Part shown: positions 16,596 to 19,121 of the stretch, one piece after another
Position numbering within the stretch: the stretch's first letter is position 1
Layout of the letters: every line of letters starts with the position of its first letter
Virus record (IMG/VR): IMGVR_UViG_2565956721_000002
Length of the DNA: 64,000 nucleotides
Reading direction: 5' to 3' (one strand)
DNA from: a virus
Taxonomy: Duplodnaviria; Heunggongvirae; Uroviricota; Caudoviricetes
Translations under genes and position numbers: made by a program
Notes under the pieces: model-generated
Seen by the model: the letters and a program-made list of their open reading frames with translations, nothing else
Told to the model about the DNA's origin: nothing
The model's database searches: none

Positions 16596-17225
16596 ATGAA
16601 CATACCACCCAGGGCGACTAGGACTGTTTTTTGTGTCGGTAGCGGTCCGTCACTCACTCGTGAGGACTGTGCTGCTATAGAAAAAACTGGCTGTTCAATC
16701 ATCGCGGTTAACAATTCCTGGCAGATGTTCGATGACATTTATGCCTTATACGCCGGTGATTTGTCATGGTGGAAGCAATACGGTTCCACCATACCGGGAG
16801 GGAGGTTCCGCAAAGTGACAGCCAACCTGGCGGCGGCGAAATCATTTTCGTTGGAGTACAGGCGATATTGTGGACCGGCGGAAGGGGTAAATAGCGGCGC
16901 GCAGGCTATCAGTCTGGCTGCTGAATCAGGGGCTGAAGTAGTGGTATTAGTCGGCTATGACTGTTCTCTGCAAAACGGCCTTCATTGGCATGGCGCGCAC
17001 CCTCAAGCCCTACGGAATCCAACGCAGGTGTCTATTTCAAAATGGCAACAGCAGTTCCTGGATACCCGCAAAAAACACGCAGATTTACATATTTTGAATG
17101 CAAGTAGGAGCAGTGCAATTCAATGTTTCCCAAGAATAAATTTAGAGGCAGTGATCGCGTTATTATCGTCGGCAGTGGCCCAAGCGCCGCAAACTTTGTT
17201 GCGCCGCGCGGAGTGCCGATTATAG
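16596..17225 (+). CDS. MptE/Maf-like (DUF115-type) Rossmann protein, paralog 1
   Basis: internal ATG 16596 of track ORF 16563..17225; motifs VFCVGSGPSLT, IIAVNNS, VVLVGYDCS; 3' end overlaps paralog 2 by about 100 nt. Confidence 0.5.
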   Translation: MNIPPRATRTVFCVGSGPSLTREDCAAIEKTGCSIIAVNNSWQMFDDIYALYAGDLSWWKQYGSTIPGGRFRKVTANLAAAKSFSLEYRRYCGPAEGVNSGAQAISLAAESGAEVVVLVGYDCSLQNGLHWHGAHPQALRNPTQVSISKWQQQFLDTRKKHADLHILNASRSSAIQCFPRINLEAVIALLSSAVAQAPQTLLRRAECRL

Positions 17226-17749
17226 CGGTCAATGGGGCCATCGACTGGCTGAACCGCGCTTCTTATTTTTTCACCCTTGATCCATCCCCAGACAATATGC
17301 GGCGCGTTGGTCGTGGCCGCCGTCGCCGTGGTGTTTGTTATTGCATGGCACTACCCGATGTTAAAGAACGTGAAGTCAGAGATGGCGTTCTGTGCTTCCG
17401 TCGTGTGGCTGAACGCGGCATGGAGCCAAAAAATACGAATTCTCCCGAGTGGTGGGCGTGGCGCTGGTCCGCACATTTCGGCCTTTGCGAAGATGAGAAT
17501 GAAATTGCCAGCGGCAATAGTGCATATGGTGCTCTGAACCTGGCTTTCCATATCGGATTCAAACATGTAGCTCTGGTGGGCGTTGACGCTACGCAAGAAC
17601 TACGCGTTCACTCCGGCGGCACGCCAAAAAATCTAAGTCACCTGCCTTTGTTATTCCAGTCTGCGCGTGAACAGATTGACGTTGTTTCATGCGGGAAAAT
17701 GGGAGGTATTCCGCAGATGACTCTTAAAGAATGGCTGAAGAATACATGA
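17123..17749 (+). CDS. MptE/Maf-like (DUF115-type) Rossmann protein, paralog 2
   Basis: AGGAG RBS; motifs [25 protein letters not shown] parallel paralog 1. Confidence 0.5.
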
Positions 17750-18423
17750 TGGCACCCACAATTTATCACCGTATCGACGGTACCAAATACAGGAATGTCT
17801 GGGTTGTTGGTGATCTGCATGGTTGCTACACCAGACTGATGTCCGAACTCCATCGTGTGGATTTTGACCCGGCGCAGGATTTACTGATATCGGTCGGCGA
17901 CCTTATCGATCGCGGTACTGAAAATGTCGAATGTCTGGAACTATTGCAGATGCCCTGGTTCAGGGCAGTGATGGGGAACCATGAGCGGTTGATGCTCGAT
18001 GCGTTAAGTCCTGATGGCAACGTGAATAACTGGCTAATGAATGGCGGACAATGGTTCTTCATGCTGGACACTGATCAGGAAATATTAGCCAGGGCGCTGG
18101 TGGAGCTGGTAAAGCGTCTGCCCTATATCATTGAGTTGAACACCGGGCAAGAAACTATCGTTATAGCCCATGCCGACTATCCGGATAATGAATACCAATT
18201 CGGTAAGGAGGTGCCGCTTTTCAACGTTGTCTGGGCGCGCGAGCGTATCAGTGATTCGATGGATGATATTGGTGGCGAAATTTCGGGCGCAGATCGTTTT
18301 ATCTTTGGTCACACTCCGGTGAAAAGCCCGAAGACATTCTGGAATCAGCAGTATATCGACACTGGTGCCGTATTTTGCGGAAACCTGACATTGATGAAAG
18401 TGAAAGGTGATGGTGCAGCATGA
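17746..18423 (+). CDS. ppp: serine/threonine protein phosphatase (lambda-PPase-like metallophosphoesterase)
   Basis: motifs VVGDLHG, GDLIDRG, GNHE and near-colinearity with lambda phosphatase as recalled; start could be 17731, 17746 or 17749. Confidence 0.8.
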
Positions 18424-19121
18424 AGATTGCTTTAGTTCTTCGCTCTGGTGGTGACTATAACGCTTCCGATGTGCAGTGGCTGGTTAATCAACTGCCAAAA
18501 GACTATGAAATTATTTGCCTGACAGACCTGAAGTGTTTACATGTACCTGGCGTCAAAGTTATCCCATTGATCAACCAGTGGCAAAAGTGCCGTGGCTGGT
18601 GGGCGAAAATCGAGTTGTTCCGACCGGATATAACCGATGATCTGTTCTATCTGGATTTGGACACGGTTATTGCCGGTGATATACGCCCAATCCTAGAGCA
18701 TCCACCAACCAGCTTCACCATGCTTAGGGATTTTTACCATCCACAATATCGTGGTAGCGGTGCCCTGTGGATACCAAATAGTGTTAAAGCGCATATCTGG
18801 AGTTCATTCTGGCAAGATCCGGAAGGTTGGATTTCTCGTTGTGTCACTACTGAGTGCTGGGGTGACCAGGGGTTCTTACGAAAGGTTATGGGCGATGATA
18901 CACCAGCATTTCAGGATCTGTATCCAGGATGGTTTGTAAGTTACAAGGCCGATGTTGTGGAACCTGGTTCAAAATATGCGAGCGCGCGTTACTCCAGGGG
19001 GAATGGGGCATTACCAAAAGACTGCCGAATAATCTTTTTCCACGGCAAACCGCGACCTCGCGAAGTGTCAGAGGATTGGCTCCCCCTTATCAGCTCATTT
19101 TTTGAGCGAGAATCAGAATAA
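18420..19121 (+). CDS. hypothetical protein with DxD motif (possible GT-A-type transferase)
   Basis: 233 aa; ATGA overlap with ppp stop; [11 protein letters not shown] contains DxD; assignment weak. Confidence 0.4.

Follow-up and report, generated by a model that had tools for sequence, protein, structure and literature searches.

The P1 genes pmgO, pmgP and pmgQ form a conserved, probable glycosyltransferase cassette found in phages of outer-membrane bacteria

The window analysed here is a stretch of 64,000 nucleotides from a Caudoviricetes virus (IMG/VR record IMGVR_UViG_2565956721_000002), and the genes under study are those of the annotated P1 operon pmgN-pmgO-pmgP-ppp-pmgQ (Table 1). Positions 16400-19300 are 99.7% identical to phage P1, and the comparison of positions 16380-19220 with the P1 sequence AF234172 reveals nine substitutions and no indels. 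Judged by this similarity, the window belongs to phage P1 itself or to a P1-type plasmid prophage that is nearly identical to it. P1 is a heavily used phage in genetics, yet its pmg genes keep the placeholder given in the original annotation, "putative morphogenetic function". RefSeq calls pmgO "alpha-2,3-sialyltransferase" and pmgQ "glycosyltransferase", both names being derived from PHROG families, and previous knowledge consists of the genes and these loose labels. In the literature that we covered, which is incomplete, we found essentiality data and no functional study of pmgO, pmgP, or pmgQ. A reading of the window made from its letters alone (the sequence-only reading) had proposed that two adjacent paralogs of the MptE/Maf (DUF115) family, a phosphatase, and a DxD-motif protein make up a module for glycosyl transfer to DNA, virion proteins, or the host envelope. 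We find that pmgO, pmgP, and pmgQ are a conserved unit with which ppp has no shared history, and we consider it likely that the three genes are a working glycosyltransferase cassette.

The Rossmann-type motifs GSGPS, IAVN, and VG(Y/V)D noticed in the sequence-only reading are all present in both proteins. They lie at G26-S-G-P-S30, I46-I-A-V-N50, and V130-G-Y-D133 in PmgO and at G17-S-G-P-S21, I33-I-A-V-N37, and V152-G-V-D155 in PmgP. Because these columns are invariant or nearly so in the family alignments, the motifs are not chance occurrences. The invariant residues include GPS28-30, D35, N50, D66, WW69-70, SG111-112, GYDCS131-135, H141, H143, and H146 in PmgO, and AVNG35-38, FTLD50-53, GNSA131-134, GVD153-155, GG165-166, and HLP173-175 in PmgP. 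A BLASTP comparison of the two proteins finds 14 identities in 36 positions, at the N-terminus only. The profile-profile comparison with hhalign relates them over 162 columns (98.2% probability, E = 4.6e-14, ~23% identity), which identifies them at the level of profiles as true but ancient paralogs. Their placement in the MptE/Maf family stands at the level of the fold, as described below. It does not stand at the level of Pfam, where PmgO (23.4 bits) and PmgP (20.9 bits) score below the gathering cut-off of PF01973 (MptE-like/DUF115, 34.6 bits). Some homologs are above this cut-off: the natural O-P fusion P0051 (44.6 bits), P0305 (41.5 bits), and P0327 (43.6 bits).

We built AlphaFold2 models of PmgO and PmgP singly from their family alignments. 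Both have good confidence, with a predicted local distance difference test (pLDDT) of 85.6 and a predicted template modelling score (pTM) of 0.82 for PmgO, and values of 89.5 and 0.90 for PmgP. A joint model based on the fusion P0051 was dropped because MAFFT stacked PmgO homologs onto the PmgP domain. The models display the Rossmann-like fold common to Maf, MptE, and Cst. The best structural match is the Maf flagellin glycosyltransferase (5mu5, scores 13.8 and 13.6 for the two models), followed by the archaeal MptE pterin pyrophosphokinase (8sd5, 11.4 and 12.3) and the Campylobacter Cst-I sialyltransferase (2p56, 10.6 and 11.1). Thiamine pyrophosphokinases and animal GT29 sialyltransferases (GT, glycosyltransferase family) come next. 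The number of aligned residues is 152-163 for Maf and Cst-I, 126-143 for MptE, and about 105-125 for the thiamine kinases. When a sequence profile of the superfamily was searched against the PDB, Cst-II (GT42) gave its top seven matches, though only at E 0.009-0.075, Maf (0.21) and Cst-I came after, and no pyrophosphokinase was matched. In these alignments, the motifs GxGPS, xxN, (N/T)SG, and GxD of PmgO and PmgP correspond to GNGPSL, CN, TSG, and GID of Cst-II. The invariant H141, H143, and H146 of PmgO and H173 of PmgP are candidate catalytic residues and lie in the loop after the GxD strand, equivalent to the one that carries the catalytic His188 and phosphate-binding tyrosines in Cst-II. 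The PmgO profile alone reaches GT42 at E about 0.5, the PmgP family profile has no match in the PDB, and PDB searches with the single sequences of PmgO, PmgP, and P0051 gave nothing useful.

The comparison with characterised enzymes suggests that PmgO and PmgP are transferases of CMP-activated sugars (CMP, cytidine monophosphate). Maf enzymes share with them the Rossmann core and the glycine-rich loop at the N-terminus. They are cytoplasmic, O-glycosylate proteins with CMP-ulosonic acids, and can use CMP-Kdo (Kdo, 3-deoxy-D-manno-octulosonate) in E. coli, where expressed Maf enzymes can attach Kdo to Ser/Thr (bioRxiv 10.1101/2020.06.03.131540). However, Maf proteins have ~600 residues, with acceptor-binding domains around the core, and are encoded in flagellar glycosylation islands, whereas PmgO and PmgP are bare catalytic domains of ~200 residues that occur as an O/P pair, sometimes fused, in phage genomes. 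Only 160-163 of the 632 residues of 5mu5 align with them, at 16-18% identity, and the multi-domain architecture of Maf is absent. No flagellar genes were called in the loci with called genes, in which the neighbours are lysis, head, tail, terminase, or P1 pmg genes; the other loci were searched for cassette and head genes only. The RefSeq/PHROG label "alpha-2,3-sialyltransferase" goes back to the likeness to Cst. Relative to Cst, the lid between the GxD strand and the next helix is much shorter in PmgO and PmgP, PmgO has its own HWHGxH motif at this place, and the acceptor of Cst is lipooligosaccharide. E. coli K-12 is not known to make CMP-Neu5Ac (the CMP-activated form of N-acetylneuraminic acid). 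Because of this, the literal sialyltransferase name is unlikely to fit the reaction in the standard host of P1 and is probably misleading for a phage of E. coli K-12.

The third enzyme compared is WaaZ, the Kdo III transferase of the lipopolysaccharide (LPS) core of E. coli (PMC4651636). The K-12 protein carries the signature of the superfamily (SGPT, IAVNG, SGLD) and a sub-threshold match to PF01973 (29.6 bits), and one homolog has a faint precomputed match to WaaZ_KDO_III (PF27901). The donor of WaaZ is CMP-Kdo, the one CMP-sugar present in all hosts concerned. Unlike the phage proteins, WaaZ is encoded in the chromosomal waa locus and acts on a lipid-linked core oligosaccharide.

PmgQ is the 233-residue protein in which a DxD motif had been noticed, and this motif (D79-L-D81) is invariant in 37 family members, as are GDQ148-150 and FHGKPRP207-213. 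We ran a profile of these 37 members against the PDB. It matches the Skp1 alpha-galactosyltransferase 6mw5 (E = 3.1e-8, ~170 residues), glycogenin-1 (E = 1e-5), and the streptococcal GT8 enzyme 5gvv (E = 4e-5). The alignments span the DxD and GDQG motifs and the C-terminal region of H-x-G-x-x-K-P-W type (HGxPRPW, FHGKPRP), and D79-L-D81 aligns to the DxD of 6mw5 and glycogenin. GT8 enzymes such as these share with PmgQ the DxD, GDQG, and H-G-x-(K/P)-(P/R)-P-W motifs, whereas an N-terminal VLRSGG motif and a GWWAK(I/M)ELF motif are specific to the family of PmgQ, which is phage-encoded and always found beside PmgO and/or PmgP. The Pfam GT8 model (PF01501) has no match in PmgQ and matches four of the 37 relatives (best E 0.026). 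Hence, PmgQ is by profile a divergent GT8-like (glycogenin-like) hexosyltransferase, presumably of the retaining type.

The phosphatase is of the lambda type, as the sequence-only reading had it. Ppp aligns with lambda phosphatase 1g5b over its full length (residues 11-229, E = 5.8e-95), matches Pfam Metallophos with 59 bits, and has the motifs GDLHG, GDLIDRG, and GNHE (GDxHG, GDxxDRG, and GNHE in the PPP family). Its membership of the module, proposed in the same reading, was rejected. To study the conservation of the operon, we scanned viral contigs and ranked them by a distant family member, which gave 28 non-P1 loci. Ppp is missing from 27 of the 28 loci, and the remaining one is a close P1 relative. 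Five distant P1-like elements (L107, L108, L110, L113, and L115) have the order pmgL-pmgM-pmgO-pmgP-pmgQ-pmgR-pmgS, at 25-66% protein identity, and in all of them pmgP abuts pmgQ without ppp between the two. Phage D6 has ppp at 90% DNA identity in a wholly different neighbourhood, without pmgOPQ. Because ppp is absent from nearly all non-P1 loci and from the distant P1-like elements, and has another context in D6, we regard it on these comparisons as a gene that moves on its own and that entered the cassette, between pmgP and pmgQ, in the close P1/P7 lineage.

It is O-P-Q, rather than O-P-Ppp-Q, that is conserved as a unit. Q adjoins P in all 27 untruncated non-P1 loci of the scan, and O is present in 22 of the 28. 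Dozens of unrelated phages and prophages, all from outer-membrane bacteria, carry the cassette, at varied positions. In a lambdoid prophage of Citrobacter rodentium it stands between the lysis genes and the terminase (lysis genes, O, P, Q, terminase). An HK97-like prophage of Pseudomonas has capsid, O, P, Q, a fourth gene resembling the GT-A fold class, and connectors. In prophages of Onishia and Martelella, O and Q without P are directly 3' of the capsid gene, and a Gilvimarinus prophage has P and Q at the same place. Genomes of, for example, Zhongshania, Brevundimonas, and Sinomicrobium have O, P, and Q together. Fusions tie the components further: O and P are joined in P0051, P0305, P0327, and P0381, one unrelated phage contig encodes a fused O-P protein of 376 residues followed by Q and a fourth transferase, and P0401 joins PmgO to a TylF-type sugar O-methyltransferase. 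An exhaustive profile search with the PmgO family returned 7,144 cluster representatives (505 at E<=1e-30), among which are more double-domain proteins. Other enzymes are inserted in or beside the cassette, namely class I S-adenosylmethionine-dependent methyltransferases (five loci), FkbM-type methyltransferases (three loci), a sulfotransferase, a Methyltransf_24 enzyme, a GT2-like transferase, and the recurrent fourth GT-A-like gene. The methyl- and sulfotransferases and the further glycosyltransferases would tailor the glycan in these phages. The conserved O-P-Q unit, the O-P fusions, and the attached sugar-tailoring enzymes strengthen the earlier proposal of a glycosyl-transfer module.

Split arrangements also exist. 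In a Serratia plymuthica chromosome (L004, 4500-17800), two copies of PmgO flank two Ig-like Big_1 proteins and a lipoxygenase, and P and Q are on the opposite strand, beside a phage lysozyme. Pseudescherichia genomes (L172-L177) are organised similarly, and in the metagenomic protein P0311, PmgO is fused to Ig-like Big_1 domains.

The overlap of about 100 nucleotides between the first two genes, noted earlier, measures 103 nucleotides and had been taken as a sign of recent duplication or of a frameshift history. In P1 and in the C. rodentium prophage, whose cassette proteins are 41-58% identical, the ATG of pmgP lies within conserved Cys-Phe codons of pmgO. Across the loci, including distant phages, O and P overlap out of frame by 40-115 nucleotides in many cases and by 4-13 nucleotides in others, and the frame of P relative to O is nearly always the same. 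Each of the two subfamilies, O and P, is conserved separately in elements of Proteobacteria, Bacteroidota, and Gemmatimonadota. As the overlap recurs and the subfamilies are separately conserved, a recent duplication or a P1-specific frameshift is ruled out, and the overlap appears from these alignments as an old, conserved arrangement. The profile-level paralogy, the limited BLASTP similarity, and the survey of viral loci all led us to reject a recent duplication. A heptamer in the pmgO frame (A_AAT_TTA, 17138-17144) could allow a −1 slip into the pmgP frame, the product of which would be an O-P protein resembling the natural fusions. We regard programmed frameshifting at this heptamer as unsupported, since the C. 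rodentium homolog lacks it and chance would be expected to produce it in ~10% of such overlaps. The constant frame of P relative to O formally leaves a −1 frameshift open.

The position of the cassette in the head-gene cluster is the strongest clue to its acceptor. It lies within this cluster in at least 14 of the 28 viral loci, as well as in L007, L008, L009, L011, L171, and L180. There it follows the HK97-type capsid gene and precedes, or stands among, the head-closure genes. Some of these loci are near-duplicates, and the helper profiles for head genes catch only HK97-like genes with kinship to four seeds, so the count is rough, but this placement recurs in different genera. Four loci have an interleaved order of capsid, small Ser/Thr/Pro-rich protein, O, head-closure gene, P, and Q. 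Other loci have the cassette after the lysis genes, in the late operon. The small protein between the HK97-type capsid gene and the cassette (Table 1) has a conserved N-terminal part of ~40 residues and a mucin-like tail rich in Ser, Thr, Pro, and Ala, and is a candidate glycan acceptor or head decoration in those phages; the P1 window contains no homolog of it. A different context is found in the lytic phage contig L010 (6113-8377), where P and Q, without O, follow a Toprim/primase-like gene and have genes for ribonucleotide reductase, ThyX, and a deoxynucleoside monophosphate kinase as neighbours. This is the only context hinting at a role in nucleic acids. All named hosts are outer-membrane bacteria (Gamma-, Beta-, and Alphaproteobacteria, one Bacteroidota, and one Gemmatimonadota), a host range in keeping with Kdo as the donated sugar. 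No sugar-nucleotide synthesis genes were noticed among the annotated neighbours of the cassette in the loci with called genes, although no dedicated search was made. Because of this absence, the donor is probably a host metabolite, and the one CMP-sugar common to all named hosts is CMP-Kdo, a candidate for the donor.

These observations suggest the following scenario. pmgO, pmgP, and pmgQ would encode a three-enzyme glycosylation cassette expressed in lytic growth. PmgO and PmgP, as minimal single-domain relatives of Maf, Cst (GT42), and WaaZ, would transfer an ulosonic acid from a CMP-activated donor, of which CMP-Kdo is the only one known in E. coli K-12. PmgQ would act as a GT8-type retaining hexosyltransferase using UDP-hexose (UDP, uridine diphosphate). 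In the cytoplasm, before assembly or while it proceeds, the three enzymes would jointly attach a short glycan to a virion protein made by the phage, in all likelihood a head protein. Other phages would extend the same core with methyltransferases, a sulfotransferase, or more glycosyltransferases, and Ppp, a lambda-type phosphatase without relation to them, would have come to lie between pmgP and pmgQ in the close P1 lineage. In P1, the promoter LPpmgL supplies late transcription to pmgL-pmgM and the cassette, which the C1 operator Oppp keeps repressed in the lysogen. Late co-expression with head proteins fits virion glycosylation by analogy with mycobacteriophage Che8-type cassettes, in which phage glycosyltransferases decorate capsid proteins with glycans shown by mass spectrometry, according to the account of Freeman et al. 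2023 given in PMC11256854. The glycosyltransferase genes directly follow the capsid gene both in Che8-type phages and in many relatives of the P1 cassette, but not in P1 itself. The hosts of Che8-type phages are actinobacteria, whereas the P1-type cassette belongs to phages of Gram-negative bacteria and its glycan is a prediction. We give the complete scenario, with a virion protein as acceptor and a CMP-ulosonic acid and a hexose as donated sugars, a probability of roughly 40%.

Several points weigh against it. The PF01973 scores of PmgO and PmgP in P1 are both under the gathering cut-off, and the catalytic residues are candidates taken from alignments. At the sequence level, the tie to WaaZ is weak (hhalign gives 22% probability and E 1e-3 for PmgP, and 5% for PmgO) and is a lead rather than a result. 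The cassette is not beside the capsid gene in P1 or in the lambdoid prophages, L010 has P and Q among genes of DNA metabolism, and the restriction to outer-membrane hosts fits LPS as the acceptor equally well. Deletion or knockdown of pmgO, pmgP, or pmgQ causes no plating defect (PMC10695390, PMC9024508). In the former study, plaques still formed after knockdown of pmgO, pmgP, ppp, and pmgQ by CRISPR interference (CRISPRi), and its table cites a deletion survey in which the four genes are non-essential (PMC10695390). In the latter, 24 of 29 single-gene knockouts of P1 plate normally with unchanged anti-restriction activity (PMC9024508). Finally, glycosylation is nowhere mentioned in the P1 virion proteome paper or in the 2026 cryo-EM paper.

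Of the targets named in the sequence-only reading, the genomic contexts agree best with virion proteins, while the host envelope is a live rival and DNA is the least likely. Remodelling of the LPS core in lytic growth is unlikely, in our estimate, even if it deserves serious attention. Extra Kdo would be added by PmgO and PmgP in the manner of WaaZ, and a hexose by PmgQ in the manner of the GT8 core enzymes WaaO and WaaJ. The receptor would thereby be masked or truncated, which would keep superinfecting phages or released progeny from being lost to infected cells and debris. The receptor of P1 is the LPS core, and GT8 includes LPS core transferases. WaaZ has the motifs and the Pfam family of PmgO and PmgP, a homolog matches WaaZ_KDO_III faintly, the cassette is confined to outer-membrane hosts, and the C1-controlled operon promoter allows early expression after derepression in P1. 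The incorporation of a third Kdo also accompanies truncation of the outer core (PMC4651636). Yet in many phages the cassette is in, or interleaved with, the late head genes. This timing suits LPS remodelling poorly, because old LPS stays on the surface, and repression in the P1 lysogen means that there is no lysogenic conversion. The closest structural match of the PmgO and PmgP models is a protein O-glycosyltransferase, and the best GT8 matches of PmgQ (Gat1/AgtA and glycogenin) act on proteins or protein-linked glycans, 5gvv being unchecked in this respect. The normal plating of the knockouts also speaks against it. A somewhat more remote alternative is another cytoplasmic target, whether host protein, non-structural phage protein, or small molecule, modified for host takeover or counter-defence, with the siting among head genes reflecting late timing. 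The indirect nature of the case for any acceptor, the variable positions (after lysis genes, in the P1 pmg region, beside the nucleotide-metabolism genes of L010), and the non-essentiality in the laboratory host, which suits an accessory or counter-defence role, are compatible with it. Nevertheless, no defence-system model was matched (PADLOC), the placement with capsid and head-closure genes is repeated in independent lineages, and a multi-enzyme glycan with methyl and sulfate tailoring is typical of surface glycans.

The remaining alternatives concern the chemistry and DNA. The fold of PmgO and PmgP is common to CMP-sugar transferases and ATP pyrophosphokinases, and their best Pfam family is MptE-like, so they might pyrophosphorylate a small molecule with ATP like MptE or the thiamine pyrophosphokinases. 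The discriminating features favour a transferase because the alignments with Maf and Cst-I are longer than those with MptE or the thiamine kinases, the sequence profile is topped by Cst-II and matches CMP-sugar transferases only, WaaZ shares the motifs, and the genomic partners are glycan enzymes, that is a constant GT8-type partner and, frequently, sugar methyltransferases or a sulfotransferase. Neither sequence similarity to the kinases nor a context of pterin or thiamine pathways was found for PmgO and PmgP. Where PmgO and PmgP have the Asn of IAVN, pyrophosphokinases probably carry a metal-binding Asp. This leaves kinase chemistry very improbable, and PmgO and PmgP would be glycosyltransferases. 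We give the smallest chance to glycosylation of phage DNA as a protection from restriction, in the manner of the T4 glucosyltransferases. The L010 context, with its primase-like, ThyX, kinase, and reductase genes, would suit it, and P1 encodes other anti-restriction functions. However, P1 DNA is routinely cut by restriction enzymes, the loci examined have no hydroxymethylase or other base-activating enzyme alongside the cassette, and the folds match enzymes directed at proteins and glycans. The single-gene pmg knockouts also left anti-restriction activity unchanged (PMC9024508).

Returning to virion glycosylation, a more specific version of it is possible but rather doubtful: P1 and many phages of outer-membrane bacteria would coat a head protein with a short O-linked, Kdo-containing glycan, made from host CMP-Kdo by the minimal Maf-like pair and the GT8 enzyme, and methylated or sulfated in some phages. 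If true, Kdo linked to a protein would be known for the first time as a native modification, and virion glycosylation would be described for the first time in phages of Gram-negative bacteria, beyond the actinobacteriophages. For therapeutic and transducing phages, it could matter to their recognition by antibodies, their binding to mucus, and the stability of their particles. It would also provide a very small enzyme set, of use in glyco-engineering, for putting an acidic eight-carbon sugar on proteins. Were the target LPS instead, the cassette would be a new strategy of receptor masking. We found no published description of the O-P-Q cassette, its placement in head clusters, the tailoring enzymes that join it, or an origin of ppp apart from the cassette, in a literature coverage that is incomplete and in which absence is no proof. 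These four elements are new here, and the Maf-like pair with a GT8-like partner would be a new enzyme set for phage-encoded glycosylation, in phages of Gram-negative bacteria.

The boundaries and control elements of the operon are listed in Table 1. For pmgO, the sequence-only reading had used a start at 16596, which is the second in-frame ATG (Met12); either start is possible, and the N-termini of homologs favour neither it nor the annotated 16563. pmgN overlaps the start of pmgO by 59 nucleotides, and its homolog was found in the close P1 lineage only (L120). It is essential by CRISPRi and non-essential in the deletion survey as cited (PMC10695390). At the end of the operon, OpmgRa and OpmgRb are inverted C1 operators on either side of a terminator-like hairpin, which was not called by a simple terminator scan. 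Seven of the nine substitutions that separate the window from P1 are at third codon positions and synonymous, except that at 17751 (M7 of Ppp, I in P1). The two others are the non-coding 16388 and a replacement in PmgQ (H94 here, N in P1). This pattern is consistent with purifying selection on pmgO, pmgP, ppp, and pmgQ.

Table 1. Genes and control elements of the operon in the window, and positions of the small Ser/Thr/Pro-rich protein in other loci.
Feature	Sequence	Position	Strand	Source or remark
LPpmgL, late promoter 5' of pmgL-pmgM and the cassette	Window	15466..15484	+	P1 AF234172 annotation; 14784-15967 mismatch-free against P1
PpmgN, predicted sigma-70 promoter	Window	16367..16393	+	Transferred P1 annotation; one mismatch to P1, at 16388
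Oppp (Op83), C1 repressor operator	Window	16406..16422	-	P1 annotation; AAATTAATTAGTGCATG in the window, identical to P1
pmgN, 51 aa, acidic protein of no assigned role	Window	16466..16621	+	P1 annotation; PHROG 2350
pmgO, 220 aa, Maf/GT42-like Rossmann glycosyltransferase (predicted)	Window	16563..17225	+	
pmgP, 208 aa, paralogous Maf/GT42-like glycosyltransferase (predicted)	Window	17123..17749	+	
pmgO/pmgP overlap, 103 nt, out of frame	Window	17123..17225	+	Sequence
ppp, 230 aa, lambda-type Mn-dependent Ser/Thr phosphatase	Window	17731..18423	+	PDB 1g5b, Pfam Metallophos
pmgQ, 233 aa, GT8-like GT-A glycosyltransferase (predicted)	Window	18420..19121	+	Family profile against PDB; PHROG 1962
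Operon end, C1 operators and hairpin	Window	19123..19188	+	P1 annotation and direct sequence reading
OpmgRa, C1 operator	Window	19123-19139		P1 annotation; right after the pmgQ stop codon
Hairpin AACGTGATG/CATCACGTT, 9-bp stem, then T6	Window	19150-19177		Sequence; terminator-like
OpmgRb, C1 operator	Window	19172-19188		P1 annotation; overlapped by the terminator-like hairpin/T6 element
Small protein	L009	6166-6555		TEP repeats in tail
Small protein	L011	5654-5941		
Small protein	L008	about 7310-7570		
Small protein	L097, L105, L118, L119			

Some other genes of the window deserve mention. pmgL and pmgM (15573-16399, + strand) are the upstream genes of the same late transcription unit. pmgL encodes a DksA-like zinc-finger protein (PHROG 54), and the product of pmgM resembles VRR-NUC nucleases (21.3 bits against a Pfam cut-off of 23.8) and belongs to a PHROG family of Holliday-junction resolvases. 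Pap (20758-21264, + strand) matches the haloacid dehalogenase (HAD) phosphatase domain of polynucleotide kinase-phosphatase (PF25109, 46 bits), a similarity that fits this type of domain rather than a generic acid phosphatase. The GT-B-like motif reported earlier in the protein at the Dbn position is indeed there, in the form of a Glycos_transf_1 match that is below the cut-off (23.8 against 26.4 bits). Dbn (9630-10628, + strand), ~6 kb upstream of the cassette, may be a fourth glycosyltransferase of P1.

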